64,000 nucleotides of DNA from a virus (IMGVR_UViG_3300025732_000030:14500-78499); one strand, 5' to 3'. Counted from the first letter of the stretch, positions 20,901 to 62,000 are shown. Notes: generated by a model from the sequence alone, not told the origin. Program-made: numbers and translations.

Positions 20901-23900
20901 TTGCTAATCAAAGCAATGAAACTTTATTAGATAGTAATATGGATCAAGCCTTTGAAATGCTTGTTGATTATTACAGATTAGGTAAAGAAGCTCAAGGTAC
21001 AGCAGAGGCCATTAATATTTTGAATGATCCTGCTGGTTTTGTGGAACATGTTGAAAATAATTTTGCTTGGATGTCAGATCTATGGAACAATAGAGAAGAC
21101 ATGATACTAAAAAATATAACAGAGCAAACAAAAAGAATTCAGTATAACAACTTGTTAAATATGTTAGCTGCTGAGGGCATCTATGTTGATTTAGAAGAGT
21201 TTGCAAACTGGAAAATGAATGGTGAACTACCTACTGAATTTTATGACTCAGTTAATAAAAGAGTTGTTCCAAAAGGAAGTATATTATATAATCAAGTTGC
21301 TCAAAAATTTATTGAGTTAGACTTTTTAAATAATATGGTGGAAAGTAAAAAATCACCAGAACAAAAACTTGCGGATAGTTTAAAAATGTTAAATTTATTA
21401 GAGCAAGAAGAACTTAATGAGCTTCAAAAATATAATGTAAAAAAAGAAATTGGTAAAATTGATGATAAAGAATTTACAATAGATACTGTTAAAAGTAAAT
21501 TAGGGATTGATCAATACCTAGATGCTACATATACAACAGAAGATGGAAAAACTGTAAATATTACTTTTTATAAAGATTCTGATGGAAACATTAAATATAC
21601 TGATGCTCAAGGATCAATAGTTGGTAATATATCTATTAAGCTTAGAGATGGAAAAATATTTGCTTATAGAGAAGAGCCAGATCCAGTTGAAGTTGAAGCC
21701 ATCAAAAAAAGATATGATCAACTTAGAGCAGAGGCTGCTGAAGGATCTATTGCAAGTACATCAAATGTAATCTTAGAAGGTGGTGTAGTTTCATTAGATG
21801 ATCTTAATGCAGATACTCCAATTGCTAATATGCCTGAAGAATTAAGAGAACAGCTTAAAGCAGCATTTGAAGATTATAGAGATGACCCAAAAAATGAATA
21901 TTTATTTCCAGAAAACCTTACTGAAGAAGAAATAGAATACAGATTTGTTAAATTTATAAAAAGTGAGTCAGAAGCATTAGAGCTTATTGAAAATTATATT
22001 AAAGAACAAAGGCTTAAAACTTCAACTTCTGAGGGAGAAGTTTCTGCTCCAATGATTACTTTATCAACTGGTAAAAAAATATCTGCAGAGAATGCTACTG
22101 ATAAACAAATTCAATCTGTATTACAACGCTATAATATGGAAATTAATGCTATAGAGAATAATAAAAATAAATCTATAGATGATGAAGTAAGGCTAAAAGA
22201 ATTAAAAGAAAAGTATTCACTTTTAGAATCTTATATTAAAAGTAGAATTAATAAAGCTCTTACTCCGGAAATGCAGAATGCTCTTGAGTTAATTAAACAA
22301 TTACAGAAAGAACAAGAAAGAATAGAAGCATTACCAACAGGATATAAGATTGGTATGAAGATTCTTAGAAGGGTAACAAATGTTATTCAAAAATTCTTGG
22401 GTAAAAAATATGAATATAAATCTAAACCAGAAATTGAAGCTGCCTATAATTTAACAATAGGGGAAGGTCAATCAGTTAAAGACTTTATTGATATTTTAAA
22501 AGCAAGTAAGCTTCCAGGATTCAATGAGAAATCTTATGAAGCTATAGAGGCATTCATGAATGAATATAGTGATACTGATTTAAAAGGTATTGATCCTGCA
22601 TTATTAGCTGCAAGACGTGGAGATAGAAAAGCTCAGGAAGAATTTGAAAAGTATGGATTAGAGTGGGAACAAACAACCACTTATAGATTTGTAGGGCAAT
22701 CAGAAGTAGATGTGCTATTATCTGGAAAAAATGTAGATAGCAAAAGGGGAATGGCAGATGCTGGTATTGATGTAACCACATCCCCAAAAGTTACAAGTGC
22801 TGCTACCAATGAATATAGAGTTACGTTCAAAGAGAGTTTTGATGTGAATAATGGTTTAGGTAAAGTAAGGGAAAAAAATAAAGAATTAGGAGATCATCAT
22901 CTTGAAAAAGGTAGGGGTTATTCTTTAAATGATGTTGTTAAAATAGAAAGACTAGATGAAAATGGAAATGTTATAGAAACTATATACAGCCCTAATATAG
23001 ATAGTTTAAAAGAAGCAACAATTAACTTTATCACAGAACAAGCAACATATCAATGGGGTAGAGATAGAGGTAATGTAATAGATAGACTAACTAAAAAATA
23101 TTTTAGTGGTGAAAAAGTTCAACCAGATCTTAATGAAATTTCACAAGAAGCATTTGATAGTTTGTTTGGAAGAAATGGTATTTATAAAACTATAAAAGAT
23201 TATATAGATACAAATGATTTAATTGTTGTAGCAAATGGTCTTATAGTATATGATGAGGAAGCAAATGTAGCTGGGGAAATAGATTTACTTCTTGTTGATA
23301 GAAAAGGTAATTTTCAGATTATAGATATTAAAACTGGTGAAACAGCCAAGTGGAATGGGTATAATAATCCTAAAAGTGATAACTATGAAAAACAAATTGA
23401 GAATACTTATCAGCAAATGGTATATGCTAGACTATTGAAAAATATGTTTGGTATAGATGCTAAGATAAATATACTACCTATTGAAACTACTGTAGATCCT
23501 ACAACAAGTAAAATACTTACTGCAAAAAGACCAGGCTCTCCACTGCTATTGAAGGCAGATAAAATTTTATTTCCATTAGAGCCAACCCAAGAAATGTATG
23601 ATAAACTTGATGCTGAAATACCTGTAACAGAACCTAAATTTAAAGGAACAGTTCCATCTAGTAATGTTGAAGATATACTTGATGATCCTAATCTTAATGA
23701 TGTTGAAAATTCAGACTATGAAAATGAAAATCCAGAGGAAGAAGATGATGATGATCAATTAAACAGTGTTAAAGAATATAATAAATTAAAATCTAAAATT
23801 GAAAAAGCAGACTATGATCAGTTGCAACTTCTTAAAGTAGATCTTGCAATGAACATTGTAAAATTTTCCCCTGCACAGTTTACAGAATTAAATAAATTAA

Positions 23901-24343
23901 TTGAAGAAAAAGAAGCAGCTTTAAAAGTACAGGATGAAACTGAAGATGGAGAAGTAATTATTTACAATATAGGTGATCAAGTTTACTCAGAAAATGATAT
24001 CTTTACAAATACGGGTAGGAAATTTTTGAGTGCTAATCAAACAGCAGTTATATCAGAGATTTCTGGAGATAAAATTACTATTAAACCAGAAGGTAAAAGA
24101 ACTAAAATGGAAATGAGTATAGAAGAATTTAAAAAGAAATTTAAACCTGCAAGCACATTGTTTAGTGGAGAAGAAACAGATGGTCCTGTAGTTGACGAGA
24201 GTGAAGGAGTTACTCAAGAATCTACAGATACTGTTTCAGATTTATTGGATGGTCAAGATGCTGCTTCTAGACAAAAAGCTTTAGAAGATCAAGCTATAGT
24301 GGAAAATACAAGAGATAATTTATTAGATGACTTAGATTGTTAA
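17915..24343 (+). CDS. Giant ejection protein 1: hydrophobic N-terminal segments, coiled coils, PD-(D/E)XK nuclease domain
   Basis: 2142 aa. AGEIDLLLVD...IIDIKTG...YQQMVY nuclease motifs (about 23270-23425). Gly/Ala hydrophobic helices near the N-terminus. SH3/KOW-like segment at about 23960-24130. Confidence 0.8.
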   Translation: MPGIEDFNEKLTKLANASSSRMLENEMRLYNPNDQITPYAYNAGKTSGSHFKRYYAYGPETFERIGFSPFQNNEKNFNEGTGTYAEFKRSIVHGFAPLFARGFVSGPKSLGRMLKGDFSDDPEEAAAYAEASAIASSTKGGLTGFGSNLLVNFGYTAGIIMEAVAEEALTLGLSSEYTIFNAGKNLVRGVKYVGRAPKVGKGILATESILQRTNQLQSTLKKLDNITDARNYWKSLKVDRSMGNVAAKSKSTGKSVLNFFNPISNTTDAIIDVAKSSKNFQGLEKISNAAFKTVGGLYRDIRNVNMALSEGRLEAGFVRKDTFDQLFDEYRETHNGEDPPDDLQDEMRQKAKEASEGALLANTLLIFATNKIVFDNVMSPKRGIARVFSKKIADVKKNMAGRTVREFTKKTLKTGKEVLTPKLSVIKKGWKGWKGTAQAIKKQGFQKTVLKTIGYAKANIMEGIQESMQDVIAKTSKDYYTESFYSEPVASYYYTEGFLNKKNKEDKSFWDHLGEGFQAQVYETDARGEFVLKKGEKQWSGKGFETFLSGFAMGTMAGPVNKALPFIQSKIAKYKNKAQYDALKAKLASYNESMAKQVNDTFKNDPLNMLNARLYNLGVQSKLADQIADPDTKAKQDAIEEATVKQISQMIELGATDIWLDHLENIKNLTQEEYAEYQGITMEQADGHTEKIDHIINKTQDILKNYDKVNEMYPNPVDLNEYKKGSVEYQKAALFSKAWDEAVRNVIFYNDSYKNTLDRMQKVYRDMASNKLIGKVDPLRVQALFNEDDLTGEIGMLKTEIEALEGSEDPNSKKQLVARKDSLKALEEFKENYNSFMDHFYKTARSQEDDEVQAIESQLSDIETQLKGKPRRAERVRLEREQKRLNTRLSQFEKNEERTLERQELKDKKNRIIDLNNQIDELTNTKNNFSVPAYYDQFTTASQYQERESERIDRKIADLEQERDSINTEVESTMDFTNEKMLANLEGSFKKYLKTLANQSNETLLDSNMDQAFEMLVDYYRLGKEAQGTAEAINILNDPAGFVEHVENNFAWMSDLWNNREDMILKNITEQTKRIQYNNLLNMLAAEGIYVDLEEFANWKMNGELPTEFYDSVNKRVVPKGSILYNQVAQKFIELDFLNNMVESKKSPEQKLADSLKMLNLLEQEELNELQKYNVKKEIGKIDDKEFTIDTVKSKLGIDQYLDATYTTEDGKTVNITFYKDSDGNIKYTDAQGSIVGNISIKLRDGKIFAYREEPDPVEVEAIKKRYDQLRAEAAEGSIASTSNVILEGGVVSLDDLNADTPIANMPEELREQLKAAFEDYRDDPKNEYLFPENLTEEEIEYRFVKFIKSESEALELIENYIKEQRLKTSTSEGEVSAPMITLSTGKKISAENATDKQIQSVLQRYNMEINAIENNKNKSIDDEVRLKELKEKYSLLESYIKSRINKALTPEMQNALELIKQLQKEQERIEALPTGYKIGMKILRRVTNVIQKFLGKKYEYKSKPEIEAAYNLTIGEGQSVKDFIDILKASKLPGFNEKSYEAIEAFMNEYSDTDLKGIDPALLAARRGDRKAQEEFEKYGLEWEQTTTYRFVGQSEVDVLLSGKNVDSKRGMADAGIDVTTSPKVTSAATNEYRVTFKESFDVNNGLGKVREKNKELGDHHLEKGRGYSLNDVVKIERLDENGNVIETIYSPNIDSLKEATINFITEQATYQWGRDRGNVIDRLTKKYFSGEKVQPDLNEISQEAFDSLFGRNGIYKTIKDYIDTNDLIVVANGLIVYDEEANVAGEIDLLLVDRKGNFQIIDIKTGETAKWNGYNNPKSDNYEKQIENTYQQMVYARLLKNMFGIDAKINILPIETTVDPTTSKILTAKRPGSPLLLKADKILFPLEPTQEMYDKLDAEIPVTEPKFKGTVPSSNVEDILDDPNLNDVENSDYENENPEEEDDDDQLNSVKEYNKLKSKIEKADYDQLQLLKVDLAMNIVKFSPAQFTELNKLIEEKEAALKVQDETEDGEVIIYNIGDQVYSENDIFTNTGRKFLSANQTAVISEISGDKITIKPEGKRTKMEMSIEEFKKKFKPASTLFSGEETDGPVVDESEGVTQESTDTVSDLLDGQDAASRQKALEDQAIVENTRDNLLDDLDC

Positions 24344-24347
24344 GAAG

Positions 24348-27300
24348 ATGAAAATAGTTTGTGCATTATCACCAAAACAAGTAGAGAACTTATATAAAGA
24401 TATATATAAAAACATGTTGAATTCATTAGAAGCTGATAAAGCTTTTAATGCTAATGACTACATGAAAACTTTATTTACACAAATTGCTGAGAAAAAAGAT
24501 GTTCCAACAGCAATGAAATTTTTACAGCAAGTGCCTAGCATTATGAGAGCTGTTGGTGTAAAATCACAGTTTGATAATTTAGATATTTCTTTAGACGCCC
24601 TTAAGCCATTGGTTACAGATTTTAAAAATGAAAAAGATGGTTTCAAGAATGTACTTAACTATTTCAAGCCAGAGATGTCTGACAAAGACAAACTGGAATT
24701 ACTTGTAGCAAATCAATTTATCTCAAGCTTACCTACTGAAATAGAAGATCCTAAAGAGATAAAAGATCCTTTTAGATTTAAACCATTTAGTTGGTTAAGT
24801 ACTACATTTCAACAATTAATACAACTTAACCCACTTAATAAATTAAAGTTATTAAGTGAAAAACCAGATGCTAATAAAAATAGGATTTACAACACTATAG
24901 ACAAAATACAAGCTGCTATTAGTGCTGAGCAAGCTTTAGTAACTGATGGTACATTAACGGTAGCTGGTAAAGTATTAAAACTAAAACCTGTTAGACTATT
25001 AGATCTTTATGATACAAACCAAGCAGATATTGATAACACTACTGCTCAAGATGTAATAAGAACTAAATCTATTAAAAATAGACCTGCGGGAGTTGAAACA
25101 CAAGATACAATTGCTTTAGTTTTATCAGATGAAGATGGTAATTATTACCACTTTACAGAGGACGGAAATTTTTCTACTGAAGAAGAAGGAGGAAAAATAG
25201 TTTATCAGTTTATGAGAAATGTAAACAAAGATAATACTACTGGAGAATATGTTGCAGTAAATCAATATGGGTATGATGATCAGATTCAAACACCAGAAAT
25301 GATTGCAGAAAAATTAGAAATTACTGTAGAAAAAGCTAAAGAACTTCAACAAGAAGAATTAAAAAACTTATACGAAATAAAACAAGCTGTTGTAAACAAT
25401 CAGCAAAATCCTCTTTTAAATGTGGTTGAATTAAGTGCGGGTGTTCCAGAAAGTTTAGCACAAAAGAAAATATCATTAAAAAATTTAAGATCTCTTCCAT
25501 TTGTAAATAATGCAACATTTAAAACAATAACACCAGTAATTGAAAAAGGATCAGATGTATCTGCAGTTATTACATTAAATGGTACTATATATCCGGTGGA
25601 TAAACCAGATTTATCTGAAGTTTTAATACAAAAAATAACATCAGTTCTTACAAATCCTAAACTATCTAATAAACAAAAGTATGACTTTGTAAATCAATTT
25701 CTTTCTGATAAAGCTTCAATGAAAGCAAGAAGACATACGTTACTTTATAATCCTGGAACAGATGCCCTCACTTTTCAATATACTGAAAAAACAAATGCTG
25801 ATGGAACTGGTGGAACATATACATTACTCAATGACCAATTAAATAATAAATATGATTTAGTATATGATGTTTTAAGATATGCAAAAGGTGATAGTAGAAA
25901 GGGTAAACCTTTTCCTGCTAAAATGACTTATAATATTGATGTCCTATCTAGAAATGGATATCAAGATTATAATATAGAAACAGGAGAAATTAGTGATGAG
26001 TATACACCTTATATTCCATTATTAGAAACACTAGATGCCGCAGATATTAAAATATCTGAAAGCACAGATCCTGGATTTTATAATACATATATTAGATTTA
26101 GTATTCCTTCAGATATTTCTATAGATGCAACTGAAGAGCCAAAAGTGAGATCACAATATGTAGGTAAATTTATTTACTCAACTCCGGGATCTGGAAAAAC
26201 TACTTTAGCAAATACAGATGAGAACATTATAGATACTGATGAGTTAATTGTAGAAGAAATGAATAAAAGGCATCCTGACTTTAAACAGGAAGCTAATGAA
26301 CCCATACAAGAGTTTATTTTAAGATATGTTATAAAATATGACCATAAAGCTGAAATAAACAAAATAGTTTTAAATCAAGTTAAAGAACTAACTGCTAGTG
26401 GTAAAACTGTTCTTACAGGTACAATGGCATTCATTAAAGATGTTGATGTTGTATTTAGAATGAATCCTACAAGCAGTAGAGCAATTGAAAGATTTGGTTC
26501 AGTTGAGAAAGCAAAAGATTTTGCTAAAAAAGAAAAAGATGAAGCTAATAAAGCAAAGAAAAAATCAATTGAAACAAAAGGAATAGAACAAAGTATAATG
26601 ACATCTTTTGTTTCTGAACCTGTTACGCAAACACCAAAAGAAGAAAGAGATAATATCATAGAACCTGAAAACACACCAAAACCAGAAGAAGGAGGTCTTG
26701 GTAGTTTGCTTGATGATGAAATGTACAGATCTGGTAAAAATTTAGATTTAGAAAATATTACTTCTGAAGATATAAAAAATGCTGAGACATGGTGGAATAA
26801 CTCACCACTGTCTAAGTTTATTGATTTCAAAACAATGGTTAACATTGTTAACTCTGATGTTTATGCAAAGTTTATTGCATATGGAGCTGTGTTAAATAAT
26901 AAATATGGTGAGATTCAAATTGGTCAAAGAACTAGTATAGTAGATGTATATCATGAAGCATGGCACGGATTTACTCAGTTATTCTTAACTCCAACTGAAA
27001 GAAAAGCTTTATATGATGAAGTTGCAAAACAAGAAGGAAGCTTTACACTATTAAATGAAACCACTGTTAAATTTAGTGACGCAACATATGGACAGCTTGA
27101 AGAATATCTTGCAGAAGAATTTAGAACTTATGCAAAAGAACAAGGTGTTAAAGCTAATTCACCTAAAAGAAATAGTATATTTAGAAAAATTCTAAACTTC
27201 TTAAAAAATCTATTTAAATCTAAAAATACTAAAGATAAACTCTTTAATGAGTTATACTTAGCTGGAAAAAATAAAAAGAATAGTCAAAAGTTCTTAAATA

Positions 27301-30300
27301 AATATTCTCCGCTTGTTAATACTTTCAGCTTTAAAGAACTTAACAGAGGTATAGAAAATGTAGTTGAACCTACAATTGATGCTTTAGATAAACAAGATAG
27401 TAATCTTGTATCAAAAAGTATTGACTCTTTCTTTTCATTAAGAGCAGATAAAAATTCTGAAGAGACAGGTACTAAAGAGGCAACTATAAGAATCTTTACA
27501 AATGAAAAAACAAAAGAAAAAGTATATGCTGAAGCTAAAGTAGATTTTCAAAATAAACTTGATACGGCTAAAGAAGAATTAGAAAAAATACAAGATGACC
27601 CCACTAAGGCATTAGAAATTGAAAAGCTTCAAAATAAAATAAGAATATTTGAAACTGCATTAAAAAATTGGGGTGATAAAAAGTCAGGAGTAATTGCTTA
27701 TCATAATGAGAATAGTGATTATAAAATCATCAACAAAAAGTTTAAAGAGATAAAAGATGAAGAGGAAGATGATACCACTACACAATCTCAAACTGCTAAT
27801 AGTAAAACAGTAGAAAATAGTTCGCAAGGTGAAACTTTGGGAATAAAAGATGATACTCAAACTAAATCTTTATTAGATTTAGCAAGTTCAGAAACTATTG
27901 TTTTATTATCTAGTTTACATAAAATAGAAAATGGCAAAACTGTGCTAAATGAATTAGGTTATCCAGAACTTGCAGATTTTGCAACTACTTGGAATAATAC
28001 TATCAGAGCTCTTAATGGAGAAAAAAATCCATCTAAAATGCTTGAAAATATTAGAACTTCTGCACAAACAATATATCCTGAATTTAAACAATTATTAAGA
28101 AAGCTTCCGGGATATACAATTGAAAATGGTAAGATTGTTATCAATGAAAAAAATAGATTTGAAGTAAAAACATTAAGTGCATTTTGGCAAGATTTTCAAA
28201 AAACAAGAGTAACTTATTTACAAACAACAATATTTGATAATAATATTGCTGAAGTTACTAAAGCTTCAATTGAAACAATGAGCTTAATGCGTAAGTTTCA
28301 AGCTAAGTTTAAAAGTGATCTTGAAAATAAATTCATTGGAAGATCAGCAGAAAATGTTGCATTCTTAAAAGTTGCAGAAGTTGTAGCAGAATTTGGTAAA
28401 GATGGAAAATTAGATTCTGATAGAGCTTATGAATTTGCAAGAGCAATAGGTTTATATTTAGATGATTTATCAATCATTAAAAATGAACTTAATCTAAATC
28501 AGAAAGCTAAGCAGATGTATGGTCTCATATATATCTATAGGGCAATGTATGATATAGATAATGCAATGAAGAATCCTAAAACAACTCAGAAAACAGTAAC
28601 TGAAATAAATGAGTTTTTATTAGATCCAATTGGTAAACTAACTTCTGGGTTTAGTGCAGGGACTATTGCTGAAAAAGAAGTAAGACAAAAAAATGCTATA
28701 GACAGAATTCTTGGTTTACAAGCTAAATATGGTTTTGATTCTGCAAACTTTGCAGTATTAAATGCAGAAAAAAATCTTGTATTTGAACATATAGATGATC
28801 ACACTATAAGTTATATAACTTATGCTCTGAATAAAATGGATAATTTATCAGAGGCATGGACACCAGGTAGTGAATTTGAATACATGAGTTATTTAAATCC
28901 ATTAATTAATTCATTTACAACAAGACTTGGTATTATTAATACACTATTTGATAAGAATGATACAGAAGATGGTGTATACAACTGGGCTAAAAGATCTGGA
29001 AAATCCTTACAATTATTTATCAATTCAGGCACTCAGGTAGAAGCAATTGATGATGGAACAAATACAACTTCATTAGATGCTAGAGGTAAGTTCTTACAAG
29101 AATTACACAGCATGCTTAAAGGAGGAATGATAGAATTTATGAGACATGCATCTAAGTCATCATCTTTTGGTGCTAGAATAGACGGAGAAGGTGGTATTCT
29201 AGGTGGTGTTGGTAAAGGCACAGATACAAGATTATGGGTTGATATAGACAAATTTGCAGTAGGTAATGCATATGAATATGTTGTAAAAAATCATATGATA
29301 CCATATATTGCTGGTGAGTTAGAAAGAATAAATAAATTTAAAGCTAACAAAGAATTATTTAAAACATATAAAGGATACAACAGAGTTCTTGCGGATGGCA
29401 CTATGGCCGGTGAAAACTTTACTGCATTTGATAATGTTTTAACTAAAGACACAAAAGCAAAAATCTTAGAGGCAGTAACAGATCCTAATATTAGATTTGA
29501 AGATTATATAAAAACTAATCCTAAATTATATAAGGAAATCTTAGAAGAAATTACTAAATATTTTACTGATCAGACTAAAGATTTGCAAAACTATTATAAT
29601 GAAGCTAAGTATTTAAGCCCAGATCTTTTAGATAAGCTTTCTGTATTTAATCTTGATCAAGAGAAAGTTGAAGAAGTTTTAATGTCTGCATATGCAGTAA
29701 ACTCTTGGGTACAAAACTTTGAAACTGCTACTTTATTCTATGGTGATATTGTACAATACAACCATGAAAAAGAAGAAATGCATAAGAGAAACTCAGGTGC
29801 AACTTCTGGTGGATTAAAGATAAGAACAGACCAATCAATAAGACGTTATCTAACTGAATTAAATGGTAAATTATCTTATGCACAAGCTGAAGGATTAGAA
29901 ACTTTAGCATATACAGGAACTTATAATTCTGCTATTATTCAAGATATTAAAAGAGAATCTGTTTATTCTCCAATAATTGAAAGAGAACTTAGAAAAGATT
30001 ATACTGAAAGACTTAAAGGAAAAGTTCCAGCTGATAAATTATCAGAGGAAGTAGAGATGCGTGTGGCTCAGGATCTTAAGCCTTATGCAAAAATGGAAGA
30101 AGCGGATGGTCAAGGTTGGATTACAATTGATGCATATAGAAATCTTAAAATGGCATCTGATCAATGGAGTGATTTACAGGAAGAGTTATTTAAAAAAATA
30201 ATAAATAAACAACCTGTTAAATATTCTGACATTATTGAATTCTTTCCTGTATATAAAGTTCAAAACTTTGGACATTTAGCTAATACGGCACTACCCGTAA

Positions 30301-33300
30301 TGGCAATGCATAAGTTTGCATTAGCTCCCCTTATTCCACCAATGATAAAGAATTCTGATTTAGAATCTTTACATAAACAGATGATTAAGAATAACATTCA
30401 GTATGTAACTTTTCCAACAGGTTCTAAAGTTGGTAGTGTAACCTCTCAAGTTAATGAAAAAGGAGAAGCAGTTGCTGATAAAATTTATGATGACAAAGAT
30501 CAAAAATCATTAAAGACAAATATTAAGTTCACACCAAATAAAGTTTATTTAGAATATCTTAAGGATGTAACTAAAGTTCCTGTGTCTTATAAAAACAAAA
30601 CAGTATTTGCTACTCAGTTAAGAAAACTTATCTTATCTAACCTATATAGAAATGGTGAATTAACTGTTAAAAATCAAGTTTTAATTAAAGACTATGAAGA
30701 TGCAGTAGATGCCTACGGTGAGTTCTTAAAAATGGAATTACTTAATGAGATAGGCTATACATTTGAAGATGGTAAATACATTGGAAACTTTAAAAACTTC
30801 TTAGAACTTGTTCAAAGAGAATTGGGTAGAAAGAATATTCCAGAACACCATATTGAGTTTGTTAATATGAATCCAGATAATTCTTTGAAAACAGATTTAT
30901 CTTTCCATTTAAGAGCAGATGAGATTGAAAAAATTATTGTTTCATTAATTGAAAAAAGATTAGTAAGACAAAAAATTAAAGGTGAAGCATTAGTACAAGT
31001 TTCTAGTGCAATGACAAATGGTATTTGGGATAACCAAATTCAATTTGATAAAGCTGATATAGAGCAAGTAAGAAAGTTCATGGGAACTAATAACTTACCT
31101 TTCTATAACTATAATAAGGATAGAACATCAGCAATGAAAGTTGCTATTGCTCTTCAAGGAGACTTTGTTAATCTTTTAAACTTAGATTACAAAGGAGAAA
31201 AAATTGGTACAAGAGAAAGACTGAATCAGGCTATCAAAGATGATGAATGGTTAAATGCAAATGATGGAGCTAACAGAAAAGCAATTACTATGATTGCTGT
31301 TAGGATTCCTGTGCAAGGTCTTAACTCTATGGAATACATGGAAGTATATGAGTTCTTAGATGAGGCTGCTGGTCCAATTATTATACCACCATCAGAAATA
31401 GTTGCTAAGTCAGGAGCTGACTTTGACGTTGATAAACTTACTACATTTATGCCATCATTGGATAAATCTGGAAAGTTTGTAGAATCAGCAATATCTAATG
31501 AAAGACTTCAAAATCTTCTTAACCAAAATAAAGATACAGAAGAAGGAAAACAAATGAATGCTAGATTACTAAGCACTCAAAAGGCAGCTTTAGAGAATAA
31601 ACTAATTACTAGCATATCTAACATACTCAGTTTACCAGAAAATTATGCATCACTGGTAAGACCAAATGCCACTTACTTATTAAAAGATGCTATAGCAGAT
31701 AAAATAGCAGATAAGGTAACAGACTATAATAGATTTGATAATTATCATGGTGAAGAAACAAGATTAAATGAAAAAGGTGAAAAAGCTATCAGCCCTACTA
31801 GAGTATTAGAACCACTATATAATTTGCACAAACATGAGGCAAACATGATTGGTAAAAAAGTATTGGGTATTGTGGCTATTTATAATGCTCTACACCCTGT
31901 TCTAAATAGTTTGGGTGCATCAATGCCTAAAACATATAGGTATAAAAAATCAAAAGAAAGAAAATCTAGAATATTTTTACCGGTTAATAAAACAAAGGAT
32001 GGTAGAATATCACTATCAGAAACTACTACAGTGGATGGAGATTTAATCTCAGAACTATATTCACAATTAATGAATGGTTCAGTAGATGTTGAAAAAGATG
32101 CTTGGATATTTTTTATTCAAGGTAATGAAGAGCTAATTGGTTTAATGGCTATGCTACTTAAATCCGGAGTTCCAAGAGAACATGCCATTAAGTTTCTATC
32201 ACAACCATTAGTTAGAGAGTATGCAAAAGAACAAAGACTTTTAAAAAGTTCTTATTCAGATCTTATTACTGATAATAGCGGTATACCAAAAACTCAATTA
32301 ACTGTAAATTATTACGGTGAACCAATAGAGATAAAAATTCCAGATAAAGAAATTGCAGCAGCTAGAGTACTCTCAAGATTTGGTGTTGATAAACCAATGA
32401 GATTTGTAAAGGGTAATGCAGATCAAGCTTCATTAGATGCATTTATAAAGAAAGGAAATATATTAAACAAAGAAGGAGTATTTGATCTTAAATTACTAGA
32501 TGCTATATTAGAAGATCCAAATAATCCTGCACGCAAAGATCAGCAAATTGCTACATTATTACATGTAATGGAGTTAGAAAAACAATTCTCTGGATATCAA
32601 GAGCTAATGAGATTATCTAATCCAGATACTTCAATATCTAAAACTTTACAGCAAGTATTAAATAGAAATGTACTACTTGATGAAATTGAAAATGATTCAA
32701 GGGTAGAAAGTAAAATAGTAAACGCTTTAAGAAAGGAATCTATTTTATCTACATTTTTTGATAATCAAATTGTTCAAGATTTAGTTGAACCAGTATTTCC
32801 ATTAAGAAATTCAAAAGATATAAGTAATATTATTATTGGCCTAATAAAGAACAATAGTTTTCAGATAACAAAAAGATTTGGTGATACTGAAAAATTTATT
32901 TCAGAGATAAAAAATAACATGGTTAATTCTGTGTTCCAAAACTATATGATGGGTTATGTGCAATCTGAAAAAGACTTATTAAATATTCCGTCAGATCTTT
33001 TAGCTAAATACTTTACAAAAGATGTGTTCTTCCAAAATACAGGATATTCATTTGCAGAAGATATTTTTGATATTATAAATCAACATCCTGAACTAAAAGA
33101 TAAATATAGTTTATTATCACAGTTATCTATTCCAGAAGTTAAGGATGGTCAAAAGATTCTTACTTTAAATAACTCTAGATTATTAAGCAAAGGAAATATA
33201 GCTGAGCAATATTATCAAAATATTGTTGCTCTAGCTGATCCTAATGTTTCTAAGGTAGATGACCCAGTACAGAATAAATATATCAGTGACATGTTCCGTG

Positions 33301-36300
33301 TACTCCCACTTATGGCCATATACCAAAATGGAGTGGGATACAGTAGATTTGGCTTTAATGAAATCTTGCCATTTGAGGATTATGTTACAATCATGAATAA
33401 TGCCGCAGTAGATTTTAATAATCAAAGTTTTGAGAATAAACAACTATACATGGATAGAGTATTTAGTATAAGTATGAATCCTAAAAATAGAATCTTTAAA
33501 AACTTTGTGTCAGCTGCATTTGCATCTACTATTCCAACATTTGAAAAGAAAAACAGATTTACAGTTATTCCACAATCAGGAGTAAAAGATGCTAAAGCTG
33601 TTGTAAAATCTAGTATCTCTACACAGTTTATTGGTTTTGGAGAAGGTATAGTTGGTAAAGATGGTAAACGCAGTAGCACACAAATATACAGAGAGCAAGT
33701 TGGTAATTTAGCAAATACTGGAAAATATAGCAGTACAGATGTAATCTTTGTATCTGTTCCTGGACTAAGAGGTGATGCAGCAATTACCAAAAGAGAACAA
33801 GATAAAACAATCAAAGAAGCAATTAAAGCTATAGAAGCTGAAGCAACTATTCTTGTAGATAATAAAGCTTATACTTTTGATTCTAAAAATACTTACAACA
33901 CCGGAGAAAAAAGATTGTTTCAAAATCTTGAAGCCAAAGGTTATAACTATTCTGAGATTACAATTGATGGTGTAAAAATAGGAACATGGAGTAAATCTAG
34001 AACTACTCAAGCTCCTATAAGTACTGGAGTAGAAATTAGTTCTAATGCTAAAGGTCTTGCAGCTGCCCTTACTAATCCTACAGAGTTAGCTAAATCTAAA
34101 GGTAATCTCACCCAATCTTATCCAATAGAATTTAATGGTAAAACTTATAAAGATGTTGAAGCTGCATATCAAGCATTAAAAGATAAATCTGAGTCTATAA
34201 CAAAACCTACTAAAGAAAATAGTAAGAACTATAAATTAATGGTAGATTTAATAAAAGCCAAGTTACAACAGCATTCAAGATTAGTTTCAGAAATAACTAA
34301 ACAAGGTGGTTCTACTTGGGTTTTATCATCTACTCATCAACCTACTAATGCAAATACCGTATGGGAAACAGGAGGAAAAAATTGGTTTATTGAAGCTCTT
34401 AACGATGCTTACTTATCTACTCAACCTACTACAGCTCCTACTGTTATAACTGAAATTAAACCAGAAGATATAACTTTTAAATCAAATAGATTAGAAACAT
34501 TTGAAAGACAGGGAGACCTTGAATCAGTAAAAGGTTATGGATTAATTATAAAAGGTCAACCTAATGTAGATTTATTTACATTTAAAGATGATTCAGAATG
34601 GGTCATCATTGATAATAAGTCTAAATTACTAATACCAATTAGAGGAGGAATTTCTACTAAACGTGATATAGCGAAATTACTAAGCAATGATTTAACTTTT
34701 CATATATCAAAAGAAAGGAATAGAAAATTATTAGAAGGAATTGGTTTTAATTTTACTCAAGAACAAAAACCAGGTGATCAATTAGATTTATTTAACCAAC
34801 GTACTATAAATCCAAATCAAAAGTTTGATAAAGTACTTGCTAAAAAAATACAAGATAAACTTGAAAAACTATATCCTGAGATTAAATTAAACATTAGCAA
34901 TACTCCAGTTTGGGAGCAAGGTGATAATGTACTTAATCAAGAGCAATATAATAATCAAGTAAACTATAGGATTAAAACAGTTGATATTTTACTTACACCA
35001 AAAGCTGATCAAGTATTTGCTAAGGGTATTAAAAATAAATGGACACTGGATAAAATCTTAACAGAACTTCAGATACCTAAAAATCAAAAAGGACTTATAG
35101 AAAGAGTAATAGAAACAATGCCATACTTTGAGGGTATACCTTTTAACGCTCAACTTGCATATGCTATTGCTTCTACTTATAACTATACTATTGAGATTAA
35201 TACTTCTAAAGATAAAATTGAGGATGCTTTCGGCAATGTTTGGGTTGATAAATATCCTAATAAAAAAATTGGAGATTATATTACTATTGATAATAAACAA
35301 TGGAAAATAACAGGTACAAGATTTGAAGATGATAGTTGGGGGGATTCGGGTTTAGAACAAAGAGAATCTTTTATTGTAGGTTCAGAAGGAGAAAACACTC
35401 AATATTACTCTAATCTAACAGTTCCAGGTGGAACTAACTATACTGAACAAGAAGTAACAACACCGGGTGTTGTTCCTAATATTAAAGGGCATGCTCAGTT
35501 TGCTACAGATAAAGGTATAGGTTGGTTTAGGAGTGATGAAAGGACTAATAGTTTAAAGCAATTTAATGAGTTTGAAATAGGAGATACTTGGTATGCTCAA
35601 GGTAGCATCAACATGTATGGTAGAGAATACTATGGTAAAATAGTTGGTAATAATGAAGGAGTAGAAATTTCAAAAGAAGAATTTGAAAAAGCTAAGCAAG
35701 AATTTATTAGTAGTAATCCTTCTTATACAGATAATACTAAAACTCGTAGAATACTAGAAGTACAATCTGATTTGTTTCAGAAAGGTAGAGATAAATATTT
35801 TCTATATGAAAAAGAAGGTAAACAAACTGTTTTAGGTACTCAAATAATTGATAGTTCTGAAAACCAATTTCTTCAACTCCTCAACAAAGACAATAACTGG
35901 GTAACATTCTTTGTTAAATCTATTATTCAAGATAGTGCTAAGAAAGGATATGAGAAAGTTTTATTTCCAAGTGGTAATACTGCTAGTAAAGTTGAAGGTC
36001 ATACTACTTTAGAAGAGTTTAAGAAGCAAAAAGAAGATAGGATTAAAGAACTTGAAAAAGATGAAAATATTTATCACCTTGCATTAATTTTAGATAAATC
36101 TGATAGCGGTATTTTAGATTCTTTTCCTACAAAAGAAGAAGCTTTAATCGCAATTAATAGAAATAACAAAGAAATACAAGAATTGGATTCTAGTAGTGAA
36201 TTAACCTATGAACTTAGAGAAAAGAATTTAAACTTAAATGAAATAAATCAACTTAAACAAGAACTTGAAAGAATAGAAGGTCCAGAAGGTTTTGGTGCTT

Positions 36301-36971
36301 TAAAACCTATTTATAATTTCTATGAAAATGTAGTGGCTAATGTTCTTAAAAAACAAGGTTATACACCTACACAAGTTACAGATGAGTATGGTAATACTTG
36401 GAATGAGGTAATAATTAACCAAGCTAGAGATTTACAAAATGTATTGTTGCAAAAAAATGAAGCAGATAAAATTATAGGTCAAGCTAATATTAAAGCTATG
36501 ACAGTATTAATTGATGCTGTAAATCAAAGACAAGATACATTACCACATGAGTATGCTCACCATTATATTGCTTGGTTTAGAAATACTCCTATTGTTCAAG
36601 AAGGCATTAAAAGATTTGGTAGTGAAGAAGCATTAGTACAAGCAATTGGAGAACAAGTTGTAAAACAAAAAGGAAATGCCTATAATTGGTGGAAAAAGTT
36701 TACTAACTTTATCTTAAATCTATTGTCTAATAAACAAGTGTTACAAGTATTAACTGATAGTTTCTTAAATAGAACAAACTTAAATGAAGTTACCTATAAT
36801 GAAGAAATGGAAAGTCAGGAAATAGAAACTGAAACAACACAAGAAAGACAAGAAAAAATTGATACTTTAAATGAACTAGAATTTAAAAATTGGTTCACAA
36901 ATGAAGCAACTAAAAATCCAGATTTAGATATCTTAGATGCTCTAGATTATTATATGAAATGTAAAAGATAA
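24348..36971 (+). CDS. Virion-packaged RNA polymerase polyprotein with accessory domains
   Basis: 4207 aa. ADGQG (30102-30116), RIP.QG (31302) and catalytic GADFDVDK (DFDVD 31419-31433), as in phi14:2 gp66-type RNAPs. Two HExxH zincins (26952, 36546), a P-loop (26178) and a NADAR-like module (about 34030). Confidence 0.9.
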   Translation: MKIVCALSPKQVENLYKDIYKNMLNSLEADKAFNANDYMKTLFTQIAEKKDVPTAMKFLQQVPSIMRAVGVKSQFDNLDISLDALKPLVTDFKNEKDGFKNVLNYFKPEMSDKDKLELLVANQFISSLPTEIEDPKEIKDPFRFKPFSWLSTTFQQLIQLNPLNKLKLLSEKPDANKNRIYNTIDKIQAAISAEQALVTDGTLTVAGKVLKLKPVRLLDLYDTNQADIDNTTAQDVIRTKSIKNRPAGVETQDTIALVLSDEDGNYYHFTEDGNFSTEEEGGKIVYQFMRNVNKDNTTGEYVAVNQYGYDDQIQTPEMIAEKLEITVEKAKELQQEELKNLYEIKQAVVNNQQNPLLNVVELSAGVPESLAQKKISLKNLRSLPFVNNATFKTITPVIEKGSDVSAVITLNGTIYPVDKPDLSEVLIQKITSVLTNPKLSNKQKYDFVNQFLSDKASMKARRHTLLYNPGTDALTFQYTEKTNADGTGGTYTLLNDQLNNKYDLVYDVLRYAKGDSRKGKPFPAKMTYNIDVLSRNGYQDYNIETGEISDEYTPYIPLLETLDAADIKISESTDPGFYNTYIRFSIPSDISIDATEEPKVRSQYVGKFIYSTPGSGKTTLANTDENIIDTDELIVEEMNKRHPDFKQEANEPIQEFILRYVIKYDHKAEINKIVLNQVKELTASGKTVLTGTMAFIKDVDVVFRMNPTSSRAIERFGSVEKAKDFAKKEKDEANKAKKKSIETKGIEQSIMTSFVSEPVTQTPKEERDNIIEPENTPKPEEGGLGSLLDDEMYRSGKNLDLENITSEDIKNAETWWNNSPLSKFIDFKTMVNIVNSDVYAKFIAYGAVLNNKYGEIQIGQRTSIVDVYHEAWHGFTQLFLTPTERKALYDEVAKQEGSFTLLNETTVKFSDATYGQLEEYLAEEFRTYAKEQGVKANSPKRNSIFRKILNFLKNLFKSKNTKDKLFNELYLAGKNKKNSQKFLNKYSPLVNTFSFKELNRGIENVVEPTIDALDKQDSNLVSKSIDSFFSLRADKNSEETGTKEATIRIFTNEKTKEKVYAEAKVDFQNKLDTAKEELEKIQDDPTKALEIEKLQNKIRIFETALKNWGDKKSGVIAYHNENSDYKIINKKFKEIKDEEEDDTTTQSQTANSKTVENSSQGETLGIKDDTQTKSLLDLASSETIVLLSSLHKIENGKTVLNELGYPELADFATTWNNTIRALNGEKNPSKMLENIRTSAQTIYPEFKQLLRKLPGYTIENGKIVINEKNRFEVKTLSAFWQDFQKTRVTYLQTTIFDNNIAEVTKASIETMSLMRKFQAKFKSDLENKFIGRSAENVAFLKVAEVVAEFGKDGKLDSDRAYEFARAIGLYLDDLSIIKNELNLNQKAKQMYGLIYIYRAMYDIDNAMKNPKTTQKTVTEINEFLLDPIGKLTSGFSAGTIAEKEVRQKNAIDRILGLQAKYGFDSANFAVLNAEKNLVFEHIDDHTISYITYALNKMDNLSEAWTPGSEFEYMSYLNPLINSFTTRLGIINTLFDKNDTEDGVYNWAKRSGKSLQLFINSGTQVEAIDDGTNTTSLDARGKFLQELHSMLKGGMIEFMRHASKSSSFGARIDGEGGILGGVGKGTDTRLWVDIDKFAVGNAYEYVVKNHMIPYIAGELERINKFKANKELFKTYKGYNRVLADGTMAGENFTAFDNVLTKDTKAKILEAVTDPNIRFEDYIKTNPKLYKEILEEITKYFTDQTKDLQNYYNEAKYLSPDLLDKLSVFNLDQEKVEEVLMSAYAVNSWVQNFETATLFYGDIVQYNHEKEEMHKRNSGATSGGLKIRTDQSIRRYLTELNGKLSYAQAEGLETLAYTGTYNSAIIQDIKRESVYSPIIERELRKDYTERLKGKVPADKLSEEVEMRVAQDLKPYAKMEEADGQGWITIDAYRNLKMASDQWSDLQEELFKKIINKQPVKYSDIIEFFPVYKVQNFGHLANTALPVMAMHKFALAPLIPPMIKNSDLESLHKQMIKNNIQYVTFPTGSKVGSVTSQVNEKGEAVADKIYDDKDQKSLKTNIKFTPNKVYLEYLKDVTKVPVSYKNKTVFATQLRKLILSNLYRNGELTVKNQVLIKDYEDAVDAYGEFLKMELLNEIGYTFEDGKYIGNFKNFLELVQRELGRKNIPEHHIEFVNMNPDNSLKTDLSFHLRADEIEKIIVSLIEKRLVRQKIKGEALVQVSSAMTNGIWDNQIQFDKADIEQVRKFMGTNNLPFYNYNKDRTSAMKVAIALQGDFVNLLNLDYKGEKIGTRERLNQAIKDDEWLNANDGANRKAITMIAVRIPVQGLNSMEYMEVYEFLDEAAGPIIIPPSEIVAKSGADFDVDKLTTFMPSLDKSGKFVESAISNERLQNLLNQNKDTEEGKQMNARLLSTQKAALENKLITSISNILSLPENYASLVRPNATYLLKDAIADKIADKVTDYNRFDNYHGEETRLNEKGEKAISPTRVLEPLYNLHKHEANMIGKKVLGIVAIYNALHPVLNSLGASMPKTYRYKKSKERKSRIFLPVNKTKDGRISLSETTTVDGDLISELYSQLMNGSVDVEKDAWIFFIQGNEELIGLMAMLLKSGVPREHAIKFLSQPLVREYAKEQRLLKSSYSDLITDNSGIPKTQLTVNYYGEPIEIKIPDKEIAAARVLSRFGVDKPMRFVKGNADQASLDAFIKKGNILNKEGVFDLKLLDAILEDPNNPARKDQQIATLLHVMELEKQFSGYQELMRLSNPDTSISKTLQQVLNRNVLLDEIENDSRVESKIVNALRKESILSTFFDNQIVQDLVEPVFPLRNSKDISNIIIGLIKNNSFQITKRFGDTEKFISEIKNNMVNSVFQNYMMGYVQSEKDLLNIPSDLLAKYFTKDVFFQNTGYSFAEDIFDIINQHPELKDKYSLLSQLSIPEVKDGQKILTLNNSRLLSKGNIAEQYYQNIVALADPNVSKVDDPVQNKYISDMFRVLPLMAIYQNGVGYSRFGFNEILPFEDYVTIMNNAAVDFNNQSFENKQLYMDRVFSISMNPKNRIFKNFVSAAFASTIPTFEKKNRFTVIPQSGVKDAKAVVKSSISTQFIGFGEGIVGKDGKRSSTQIYREQVGNLANTGKYSSTDVIFVSVPGLRGDAAITKREQDKTIKEAIKAIEAEATILVDNKAYTFDSKNTYNTGEKRLFQNLEAKGYNYSEITIDGVKIGTWSKSRTTQAPISTGVEISSNAKGLAAALTNPTELAKSKGNLTQSYPIEFNGKTYKDVEAAYQALKDKSESITKPTKENSKNYKLMVDLIKAKLQQHSRLVSEITKQGGSTWVLSSTHQPTNANTVWETGGKNWFIEALNDAYLSTQPTTAPTVITEIKPEDITFKSNRLETFERQGDLESVKGYGLIIKGQPNVDLFTFKDDSEWVIIDNKSKLLIPIRGGISTKRDIAKLLSNDLTFHISKERNRKLLEGIGFNFTQEQKPGDQLDLFNQRTINPNQKFDKVLAKKIQDKLEKLYPEIKLNISNTPVWEQGDNVLNQEQYNNQVNYRIKTVDILLTPKADQVFAKGIKNKWTLDKILTELQIPKNQKGLIERVIETMPYFEGIPFNAQLAYAIASTYNYTIEINTSKDKIEDAFGNVWVDKYPNKKIGDYITIDNKQWKITGTRFEDDSWGDSGLEQRESFIVGSEGENTQYYSNLTVPGGTNYTEQEVTTPGVVPNIKGHAQFATDKGIGWFRSDERTNSLKQFNEFEIGDTWYAQGSINMYGREYYGKIVGNNEGVEISKEEFEKAKQEFISSNPSYTDNTKTRRILEVQSDLFQKGRDKYFLYEKEGKQTVLGTQIIDSSENQFLQLLNKDNNWVTFFVKSIIQDSAKKGYEKVLFPSGNTASKVEGHTTLEEFKKQKEDRIKELEKDENIYHLALILDKSDSGILDSFPTKEEALIAINRNNKEIQELDSSSELTYELREKNLNLNEINQLKQELERIEGPEGFGALKPIYNFYENVVANVLKKQGYTPTQVTDEYGNTWNEVIINQARDLQNVLLQKNEADKIIGQANIKAMTVLIDAVNQRQDTLPHEYAHHYIAWFRNTPIVQEGIKRFGSEEALVQAIGEQVVKQKGNAYNWWKKFTNFILNLLSNKQVLQVLTDSFLNRTNLNEVTYNEEMESQEIETETTQERQEKIDTLNELEFKNWFTNEATKNPDLDILDALDYYMKCKR

Positions 36972-36976
36972 ATATT

Positions 36977-39900
36977 ATGTCATTCTGTTTAAACTTTGGT
37001 GATCCTAATGTACAAAAAATGGTAAAAGATTTTGGAGAGGTTAAAGTCTCTAATCTTATCCAGGAATTTTTTAATAGTGAAACACCTATATATGATGATT
37101 TCATTAAAAATAAAAATGTTAAAGAGGCATTAGGTTTAGTACCTATATCTAAAGTGAAACAAGAAATTGGTAAAAGCTTTCCCAAAGAAATTAGTGGAAG
37201 CCAAATGATTAGTTTAAAGAGTGCCGTTTCTAGAAAAAACAACTATAATTTTAGTAATAAAATTTCAGTAGTATATTCTTTATATAACTTAGAGCAAATA
37301 GGGCAAGCAGATTTAAATACTTGGGGTCTTAGAAAAGTTAAAGGTAAATTAGATATTGATGGCAAAATAGATAGAGCAAAATCTAGAATTGTAGATGCTG
37401 GTCAATCAAATAAACCTGTATCAGAATTAGAAAATCTAATTAAAACAGGAGCATATATAAAACCAGAATTCAGAGAGAAAACTCCTGAAGAATTATTATA
37501 TGAACAAGAAGCTAGAAAGATACAAGAGGAGGATGCTAAAAGAGCAGGTGTAGATTATAGCGATGACTACTTATTTGGAAGAAATTCTGAAGGACAATTG
37601 GGTGTAGATCCAAATATTACAGAAGCAGAGTTCAGAAGACAAGCAGACATTGTAACTAAAATGGCAGCTGTAGAAGAAGCTACTGCAGATAATTTTGATG
37701 TTAAAAAAGAAAAAGCTATTGAGGTTGCTACAAAACTTGCAGATAAATTATCTGAAGCTATGAATGTAGAATGGGAGTTAGTAACTCCTGAAGCTGCTGA
37801 AATATTATTAAAAAATACTCCAACAGAATATGCCGGAGAACCAGCATTTTTCTTTGGTAATAAAGTATACTTTGTAGAAGGTAATCTATCACTTGATAAT
37901 GTACTACATGAATTTGCACATCCTTTAATAAAGGGAATTGAGCAAGAGAATCCTGAGCTATTTGATAAGTTATATACTGAATTAAGTATGACACCAGAGG
38001 GTCTAGATGTTATAGCATATATAGAAAGGGTATATCCAAGACTTCAAAAAAGCACAAAAGCATTTATGCGGGAAGCATTAGTTACTTCTATTGAAAGAAA
38101 AGGTACAGCTCCATCTTCTAAATTTAAAAAATTCTTAGACAAACTAATGTTTGCTATCAAGAAAATTATTAGAAAAGTGTTTAGCCCGCAAGCAGCCGCA
38201 AAGATTAATTTAAATAAATTAAGTCAAAGTACCACTTTAGATCAATTAGCAAATATGCTTGCTAATGAGGAGTTTGAGATAGAAACAGTTGATATTTTAG
38301 ATACTGATTCTGCAGAGTTTAAAAAACTAGAAAATAATATTTCTAGAAGAATTGCAGAACTTAAAGAATTACCGGTTGAAAAATTGCAAGAAGAGATTAA
38401 TAGAATCTATGACAATAACATGCGGCAGCTTAATAGTTTAAAGCAAGTGCCATTTAAAGTAAAAGATTTATTAGTTAAAAGTGGTGGTACAAAAATTTTA
38501 AATTATATTCGGGAAGAGCTTTCAAAATATCAAACAGTTAATGTAAGAGCAGAAGATATTGATCCAGAAAATGTTATCAGAGCTGTAGAAGATATAGAAA
38601 AAGAAACAAGACTTAGAGCCCTTGCTTTAATAAACTCATTAAATGAAATAAAAATATTTACTGAAAGTATTGAAAAAATTCTTGATGATTTATCAAAAGT
38701 AGAATCACAAACAAATGAAAATATATCAAGAGTTGTTTATTATAAAACTTCATTACAAAATCAAAAAGATTTAATAGATAACTTAAAAGATATAGGATTA
38801 GATAAAGAAACTTTATTTTTTAGTACTCTTAACTCAATTCAAAATTCAATTGAAAAAGCTAATAAAAAAATAGAAGAAATTGAATTTAAGTTTATATCTG
38901 ATTTCTTTACAGATGAGACTGAATTAATGAAAGGCAGTGTTGAAAAAAATTTAAAAGAAAGGGTTGGTATAATCTTAAAGGCAGAGGGATATTCTGATGT
39001 AGAAATAGATAAATTTATAAATAATGTAATTGATACAAAAGATAGGGAAACATATACATTAAAAGATCTTGGTTTAACTGGAGTAAGTTCAAGAAGAGCA
39101 AAACTGGTTGTTAAGGCTGTAAATGAGTATATGTTTAAAAGATTGGGTAAACAGCAAATTGAAGAATATTTAAAAGGGCAGAGAGGAGATATTTCATTTT
39201 TTACAGGATTTATAACTCCATATGCAAATATGGATGATCCAATTTCTGGTTCCTTTACAAGATTTATAAAAACTAAAATATTTGAAGCTCAACAATCAGC
39301 ACAAGATCAAGCAGATGAAATAACATATAAATTACTACCATTATTAAATGCAGTAGGTTATCAACCACATAAAGTAGATCAACTTGGTGATATGCTATTA
39401 TTTTTAGATAAAGTTGGTTATGTAGATAATAATGGAGATTTTCAAGAAAAAGAAGTTTGGACATTCAAAAATAAGTTTAAAAATTATAAATATGATTTAG
39501 CAAAACTTCAAAATGATTTTGCAGTTGCAAGACATAACAATGATAAACAAGGTATGAAAGATGCTTATCAAGCAATTCAAGACTTTGAAGAAAAATATAT
39601 GCATAGAAAATATACAAAAGCTTTTTATGATATACAAAAAATTTGGAATACCGGATCTACAGTAACTGATCCTTTTACAGGAGAAGAAATAACTGTATCT
39701 CCTAGTGTAGCATTTGATGCATATGTAGAAAGACAGAATCAACTTTCTAAAATGAATACATTAAAGAATGTTAATTTCTTAGACTTAGAGGACTTATATG
39801 ATTTTAATGACTCAGAGGAACAGGCCAGATTAGAATATAATAGGTTATTTGATATATATTCCTTAGACGGTAAACCAAAACAAGGTGAAGAACTTCAAAG

Positions 39901-61795: not shown

Positions 61796-62000
61796 AAGCT
61801 TTTGTAAGACTATCTGTATTTACCCAATCATAGTTATATACTTTCCAATCAGTTGTACTTTCATCACTACATGATGAGATTAAACTAAGTCCCGGCAATA
61901 AATCCAATGTGTAATAATAATAATCATAGCCATTTTGGCTTTCTTCATCTAAGACTTCAACTTTTTCAAAGCCTAAGTCTAGTAGTTCTTGTTCTGTCAT
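61734..62000 (-). CDS. Hypothetical protein
   Basis: MTEQELLDLGFEK start typical of small phage proteins. ATGA overlap with the upstream gene. Confidence 0.7.
   Translation of the reverse strand: MTEQELLDLGFEKVEVLDEESQNGYDYYYYTLDLLPGLSLISSCSDESTTDWKVYNYDWVNTDSLTKASILHLREVALAQGYLNQRPQ

Follow-up and report, generated by a model that had tools for sequence, protein, structure and literature searches.

Three giant proteins, P1, P2 and P3, encoded one after the other in a virus genome from the IMG/VR database, carry cysteines (Cys) only at those ends that face another of the three, and their homologues follow the same rule. By analogy with a phage complex of known structure, we consider it likely that these residues pair as inter-chain disulfides and lock the proteins into one linear chain, P1-S-S-P2-S-S-P3. 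The DNA analysed, hereafter the window, is the 64,000-nucleotide (nt) stretch between bases 14500 and 78499 of the 78.5-kb record IMGVR_UViG_3300025732_000030, which is approximately 66% complete. Homology identifies the three genes as the RNA-polymerase cargo block of a crAss-like phage. They are given below with the Cys status of the two ends in square brackets, N-terminal end first.

17915-24343, plus strand: P1, 2142 amino acids (aa), putative first chain member [-,C] (open reading frame (ORF) listing, residue counts, homology)
24348-36971, plus strand: P2, 4207 aa, putative middle chain member [C,C] and, by homology, the virion RNA polymerase (ORF listing, residue counts, BLASTP)
36977-43177, plus strand: P3, 2066 aa, putative last chain member [C,-] (ORF listing, residue counts, homology)

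The gaps between the genes are 4 nt (P1-P2) and 5 nt (P2-P3), a spacing that suggests equimolar synthesis. ORF translation and residue counting revealed four Cys in the 8,415 residues of the three proteins.

24338-24340, plus strand: Cys2142 of P1 (TGT), its last residue (..DDLDC before the stop); invariant column in the 46-sequence alignment A2
24360-24362, plus strand: Cys5 of P2 (MKIVC, TGT); invariant column in alignment A3 and inside the predicted interface with P1
36960-36962, plus strand: Cys4205 of P2 (TGT), third residue from the end (..YYMKCKR before the stop); nearly invariant column in A3
36986-36988, plus strand: Cys4 of P3 (MSFC, TGT); invariant column in alignment A1

The two outer ends, the N-terminus of P1 and the C-terminus of P3, have none. 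An earlier note on this DNA had reported these four Cys from reading the translations, and our listing reproduces their number and positions exactly; a check for overlooked internal Cys in P1, P2 and P3 left the count at four. At the level of the other ORFs (approximately 0.9%), about 75 Cys would be expected in the three proteins. With four Cys placed at random among the 8,415 positions, the probability that each of the four junction-facing ends has one within 5 residues is about 3e-12, and the probability that none of the four lies more than 10 residues from the nearest of the six ends is about 2.6e-9. The replication proteins were said to use Cys freely, and this is also what we observed on the minus strand, the replication side, where 14 of the 15 ORFs contain 0.4-1.5% Cys and only the 196-aa ORF at 61997-62587 is Cys-free.

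Three database protein searches, one for each protein, recovered 345 homologues with identities from 100% down to 22%. A C-terminal Cys, counted within the last 10 residues, is present in 118 of 120 P1 homologues, and an N-terminal one in none of them. Among P2 homologues, 113 of 120 have the N-terminal and 118 of 120 the C-terminal Cys, while those of P3 have it at the N-terminus in 100 of 105 cases and never at the C-terminus. The homologues that break the rule look like truncated or mis-started gene calls. The sole full-length P2 homologue devoid of a C-terminal Cys (P0175) probably contains a sequence error, as all its closest relatives have one. Internal Cys occur in P1, P2 and P3 homologues at a frequency of 0.001-0.008%. 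In addition to the invariance of C2142, C5 and C4 in their alignments, the C4 column of P3 is among only 19 invariant ones in A1 (32 sequences, down to 21% identity), and the Cys4205 column of P2 stays nearly invariant in A3 although the flanking tail sequence varies by clade, being fully different in YYMKCKR, DRTSTDCQ, ILKAIC, NIKCNL and RELLC. P1 ends with the conserved motif LLxDLDC. Considering 187 distinct chain proteins from the loci described below (427,993 residues), 211 of all 226 Cys are terminal, encoded by TGT (181) or TGC (30) and located 3-6 residues from the N-terminus or 1-8 from the C-terminus. The rule also holds in crAss001, DAC15, phi14:2, p-crAssphage, crAss002, cr118_1, cr50_1 and the Flavobacterium phage Fpv3, spanning Steigviridae, Intestiviridae, Suoliviridae, a Flavobacterium phage and the uncultured clade of the window. 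The rule is deep and not the product of chance; the conservation that the earlier note had left to be checked reaches the limit of detectable homology.

The pairing of the terminal Cys was analysed in a 2x2 table of the junctions between adjacent plus-strand genes in 93 IMG/VR loci (numbered L) and the window. Cys were found on both sides of 110 junctions, on neither side of 58, only upstream in 4 and only downstream in none, counts that overstate the independent observations since the loci are mutually related. The four upstream-only junctions correspond to one frameshifted start and three unrelated small ORFs. The independent events are about five split or fusion transitions, and the evidential weight lies there. 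The prediction that terminal Cys co-occur pairwise, including where genes are split or fused differently, is borne out, with pairs that track the breaks.

In three separate cases P2 is split by an extra gene, and each time the extra protein has Cys at both ends. In L012-L016, L021 and L022, a protein of 242-655 aa between P2 and P3 carries two Cys and no more, one at residue 3 and one at the last position, and the P2 before it still ends, and the P3 after it still begins, with Cys. Their sisters L017-L020 have no extra gene and a longer, unsplit P2 with the two terminal Cys only, whose end matches the last approximately 120 residues of the extra protein. In L065 and L067 the extra protein has 583 aa [C4,C-3], and its last 27 residues are identical to the P2 tail of the sister genome L068, in which P2 is unsplit. 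In L043 it has 396 aa [C3,C-2], and the Cys pair is kept across an inserted GIY-YIG endonuclease gene. This gene is a 197-aa ORF between the chain genes (L043:8211-8801), with an N-terminus that resembles a GIY-YIG homing endonuclease by eye and its own unrelated Cys. The N-terminus of the 583-aa protein of L067 (MATCPIKSDPDFQ) resembles the P3 head motif MxxCP[IN]xxSxEW, a similarity which hints that new chain members may originate from a junction already present, copied as a cassette.

Fusions show the opposite change. Where P2 and P3 are fused (p-crAssphage gp44 and crAss002 gp33), only the C-terminal Cys of P1 and the N-terminal Cys of the fusion remain of the terminal set, and the two fusion proteins have no internal Cys in common. 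Where P1 and P2 are fused (cr118_1 gp14, cr50_1 gp059 and Fpv3 gp32), the fusion is [-,C] and is followed by a [C,-] P3; Fpv3 gp32 has one Cys in 4287 aa, at position -2. Since the fusions miss exactly the Cys of the joined ends, the partners are fixed as P1 C-terminus with P2 N-terminus and P2 C-terminus with P3 N-terminus. In crAss001, DAC15 and IAS virus, P1 is on the strand opposite to P2-P3 and is still [-,C], so the rule belongs to the proteins and not to the junction DNA. For crAss002 gp33 (L010:17088-29825), the true start is probably Met33, 32 codons downstream of the annotated one; the protein then begins with MSCTPSNP.., in agreement with the rule and with the MSC.. start of p-crAssphage gp44.

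A complex model of the P1-P2 junction was built from the last 250 aa of P1 and the first 500 aa of P2, with alignments comprising the window and nine IMG/VR relatives. The score was 0.76 (runs of 0.76, 0.00 and 0.78), and none of three controls scored above 0.00; in the reference sets, 58 of 80 solved complexes but just 2 of 110 mismatched pairs attain the score mark, a calibration that is only rough here because we used our own alignments. Contacts agreed among the runs at a level of at least 1%, and the partner predicted local distance difference test (pLDDT) value was at least 52.

24194-24340, plus strand: C-terminal segment of P1, residues 2094-2142 (fragment residues 202-250), predicted by the complex model to dock on the N-terminus of P2

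The modelled interface comprises P1 residues 2094-2142, with the last four residues included, against P2 residues 3-24, 45-68, 93-99 and 123-124. As it spans the last four residues of P1 and residues 3-24 of P2, both Cys regions are within it. The model supports the docking of the P1 tail on the P2 head. Of the structure prediction foreseen for the terminal pairs, this is the part that covers P1-P2, and it speaks for docking there.

The bond itself is suggested by cyanopodophage A4, in which cryo-electron microscopy showed the C-terminal helix of gp27 inserted into gp26 and a Cys1715-Cys5 disulfide inside the capsid; a chain reaction upon ejection was proposed in that work (PMC12002296). In the A-4L record, the sole Cys of gp27 is residue 1715 of 1717 aa and the sole Cys of gp26 (1114 aa) is residue 5, while gp29 is Cys-free and gp28 has two Cys three residues apart. 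The likeness to our proteins consists of adjacent ejection-protein genes with sole Cys near the upstream C-terminus and the downstream N-terminus, and of an upstream C-terminal segment that docks on the downstream N-terminal domain (here P1-P2, in the model). BLASTP of the crassvirus proteins against A4 gp26 and gp27 found no homology (small database, all E > 0.3), and the two systems therefore resemble each other in mechanism and not in family. A4 also differs from the chain proposed here, as it has a single pair and a T7-like core stack and lacks an RNA polymerase, and its link was neither presented as a general rule nor tied to gene splits or fusions (PMC12002296). The earlier note had proposed that the C-terminal Cys of each protein pairs with the N-terminal Cys of the next by a disulfide or metal bridge; the comparative pairing and the P1-P2 docking model speak for the partners, and the type of bond comes from the A4 analogy.

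Sequence similarity identifies P2 as a crAss-like phage virion RNA polymerase, the C-terminal third of which holds variable accessory modules. Its residues ~1780-2630 match phi14:2 g066 (BLASTP 4e-21), the protein of PDB entry 6VR4, and further matches are crAss001 gp50 (5e-16) and crAss002 gp33 (2e-19).

31419-31433, plus strand: DFDxD catalytic motif of the two-barrel RNA polymerase, P2 residues 2358-2362 (alignment A3)

D2358, D2360 and D2362 are invariant in A3 (51 sequences), and DFDxD has been described as the RNA polymerase catalytic motif (preprint 10.1101/2020.03.07.982082). No family was found at E <= 0.01 in a Pfam scan of the window P2, and a phmmer search of PDB sequences with P2 gave no match, the link to 6VR4 coming solely through BLASTP to phi14:2 g066. 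P2 homologues vary from 2552 to 4286 aa, and their database Pfam domains also vary: PF08719 (YbiA/NADAR-like), PF13532 (2OG-Fe(II) oxygenase), PF18760, PF00075 (RNase H) and PF13671. P1 is the counterpart of crAss001 gp47 and phi14:2 g067; its matches to gp47 (BLASTP 4e-8) and DAC15_61 (3e-9) are weak and limited to a nuclease-like stretch, but reciprocal in position. A PD-(D/E)XK-like stretch occupies P1 residues 1764-1844 (PF12705 at 19.4 bits, below the cut-off of 22). P3 has a zincin HExxH motif at residues 311-315, with H311, E312 and H315 nearly invariant in A1, and a LysM domain at residues 1754-1793 (Pfam scan). A direct BLASTP of P3 against crAss001 gp49 gave no match, and the two are linked through cr118_1 gp15 (7e-6 to P3, 8e-36 to gp49 and 4e-19 to phi14:2 g065). 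No families were found by a PHROGs scan of P1, P2 and P3. The clade of the window is absent from the GenBank phage collection, where tblastn of P3 found no match and P2 only short and weak crassvirus matches.

The homologous proteins g067-g066-g065 of phi14:2 and gp47, gp50 and gp49 of crAss001 have the same [-,C] [C,C] [C,-] pattern, and the cargo proteins of both phages were found in virions by mass spectrometry (PMC10172136; preprint 10.1101/2020.03.07.982082). Presence in the virion and delivery to the host are known from such cultured relatives only. The window P2 is also much larger (4207 aa versus 2180-2412 aa in cultured crassviruses), and the window proteins are, the LysM domain aside, too distant for PHROG or Pfam matches. 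Terminal Cys are mentioned neither in the crAss001 atlas (PMC10172136) nor in the phi14:2 polymerase preprint (10.1101/2020.03.07.982082). Crassvirus virions can contain disulfides, as the tail and portal-vertex proteins of crAss001 do (PMC10172136). In Schitoviridae, near-total suppression of Cys in the ejected proteins (N4 gp50; DEV gp71, gp72 and gp73) was explained by their passage through the envelope (PMC11445570). Our proteins share with them a giant ejected virion RNA polymerase and the depletion of internal Cys. However, the N4-like polymerase is a single Cys-free chain, and here there are 2-4 polypeptides with Cys at the joining ends; P1, P2 and P3, with four conserved Cys, do not have the complete absence of the Schitoviridae type.

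An alternative to disulfides is that the facing Cys share a Zn, Fe or Cu ion as a bridge, with a variant where all four belong to one tetrahedral node. Thiolates bind metals well, the three-protein form has exactly four Cys, and the dense Cys cluster (residues 498-616) of an 881-aa cargo protein encoded upstream indicates that metal sites are tolerated in the cargo. Nevertheless, the number of Cys follows the breaks (2, 4 and 6 in the two-, three- and four-protein forms), as expected for pairs and not for a fixed site, no conserved His, Asp or Cys lies beside the terminal ones to complete a site, and the corresponding link seen in the A4 map is a disulfide, so we consider a metal bridge unlikely. 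The neighbours could also dock non-covalently, leaving the terminal Cys free to attach to a third component of the virion, be it portal, inner capsid or muzzle, or to join like chains (P1-P1, P3-P3). That terminal Cys can have other partners is indicated by smaller cargo proteins of other phages with a lone terminal Cys and no obvious neighbouring partner, namely Fpv3 gp30 (Cys5), p-crAssphage gp47 (Cys-2) and crAss002 gp30 (Cys-8). A third party, however, would not predict that every fusion lacks both joined-end Cys and keeps the other two, and that every split adds two, and the modelled interface holds both the terminal residues of P1 and residues 3-18 of P2; such other partners seem improbable to us as the main role of these residues. 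The three lone-Cys cargo proteins (Fpv3 gp30, L101:3054-4850; p-crAssphage gp47, L009:5588-8161; crAss002 gp30, L010:6393-8066) may represent further links to other virion proteins.

Two other explanations involve no bond at all. The terminal Cys could be neutral leftovers of a purge imposed on ejected proteins by unfolding or by crossing the periplasm, the ends being the least harmful places, and Cys suppression without any need for pairing is indeed established in N4 gp50, DEV gp71 and the Schitoviridae ejection operon (PMC11445570). Leftovers would not be expected to be invariant down to 21-27% identity, to be missing from the free ends of all homologues (0/120 and 0/105) or to arise anew at each split, and the Schitoviridae proteins keep essentially no Cys. 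We rejected this very improbable explanation, as the conservation and the split and fusion data contradict it. The TGT codons could instead be a nucleotide-level signal of coupled stop/start junctions, for example for re-initiation, considering that the genes are so close and that all four window codons are TGT. However, P1 keeps its C-terminal Cys in crAss001, DAC15 and IAS, where kilobases separate it from P2 and the two genes lie on opposite strands; 30 of the 211 codons are TGC; the offsets vary, 3 to 6 at one end and -1 to -8 at the other; and the L043 pair persists across the inserted homing-endonuclease gene. The opposite-strand P1, the use of TGC and the varying offsets contradict such a signal, which was rejected as hardly credible.

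Besides the relatedness of the loci, some observations weigh against the disulfide-linked chain. In IAS virus, gp055 has the C-terminal Cys and gp056 has no N-terminal one (L100:15812-24794), although this split may be an assembly artefact, with runs of N in the junction DNA. Some relatives have internal Cys (7 in p-crAssphage gp44 and 9 in IAS gp056), so the purge is not absolute in every relative. One of the three complex runs gave 0.00, pLDDT values are low (52-64), and the model covers the P1-P2 junction only and yields no S-S distance. The only solved member, phi14:2 gp66 (6VR4), was determined alone, and the anoxic habitat of gut crassviruses makes thiol oxidation less certain.

For the disulfide-linked chain we suggest the following course. 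Selection would have removed all Cys of P1, P2 and P3 except one at each end that meets another polypeptide. The C-terminal helix of P1 would dock on the N-terminal domain of P2, and the P2 tail on the P3 head. Judging from A4, the docked pairs are most likely locked in the virion by the disulfides Cys2142-Cys5 and Cys4205-Cys4, which would produce a linear, unbranched chain of approximately 8,400 residues with two free outer ends. As the Cys are close to the ends, they would leave no loops and only tiny stubs, and the chain could thread the narrow tail channel partly unfolded, to be reduced to three proteins in the cytoplasm. A more tentative extension, which we regard as possible but rather doubtful, is that the thread leaves the capsid in gene order, P1 N-terminus first, with each protein pulling the next through the channel across tail and envelope; that cytoplasmic reduction both frees and activates the RNA polymerase; and that the terminal Cys pair evolved in crassviruses as a portable connector, by which giant cargo genes can be split or acquire modules and still be delivered as a unit. 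A search for thioredoxin (PF00085) in the phage record found none, a result of little weight as the record is approximately 66% complete.

The region upstream of P1 encodes smaller proteins.

14040-15554, plus strand: 504-aa Cys-free protein encoded ahead of the chain genes and presumed to be a smaller cargo protein; its relatives are Cys-free too
15580-17904, plus strand: 774-aa Cys-free protein whose gene immediately precedes P1; this junction was a negative control for the 2x2 table

Both had been described in the earlier note as apparently Cys-free, and no Cys was found in either. The junction between the 774-aa protein and P1 has Cys on neither side, and family scans of the 504-aa protein gave no family. 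Two further cargo-type proteins, at 4118-7255 (1045 aa) and 7314-11336 (1340 aa), have exactly two Cys each, spaced 11-13 residues (C141/C152 and C415/C428). Short-range Cys pairs are also found in crAss001 gp45 (C390/C398), phi14:2 g069 (C369/C378), DAC15 gp59 (211/219 and 273/281) and A4 gp28 (1036/1039), which, taken with the terminal pairs, suggests that ejected proteins may tolerate only Cys giving tiny loops or end-to-end links. The 881-aa protein (11343-13988) has 10 Cys, all within residues 498-616, the rest being Cys-free; with CxxC-type pairs at 555/558, 585/588 and 612/616, they resemble a local metal-binding cluster, and no family match was found for the protein. A 156-aa antisense ORF within P2 (26375-26845, minus strand) is most likely spurious.

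Crassviruses are the most abundant phages of the human gut. In our literature search, no paper was found describing a terminal Cys rule in their cargo proteins. The type of link is already known from one structure (A4), and Cys depletion from N4-like phages; new, on the reading proposed here, is a chain of two to three links that includes the RNA polymerase and obeys one rule. The arrangement and exit of the crassvirus polymerase cargo are unresolved (PMC10172136), and the chain addresses the open question of how a megadalton protein cargo passes through the narrow tail of a podophage. One Cys pair per polypeptide break is a concrete hypothesis, testable on gels with cultured phages, and the rule explains why cargo genes can fuse, split or switch strand without consequence. 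For annotation, the terminal Cys are a signature by which chain members can be spotted and start codons corrected, as in crAss002 gp33. The single structural observation made in A4 would be extended in this way to a whole phage order and beyond.

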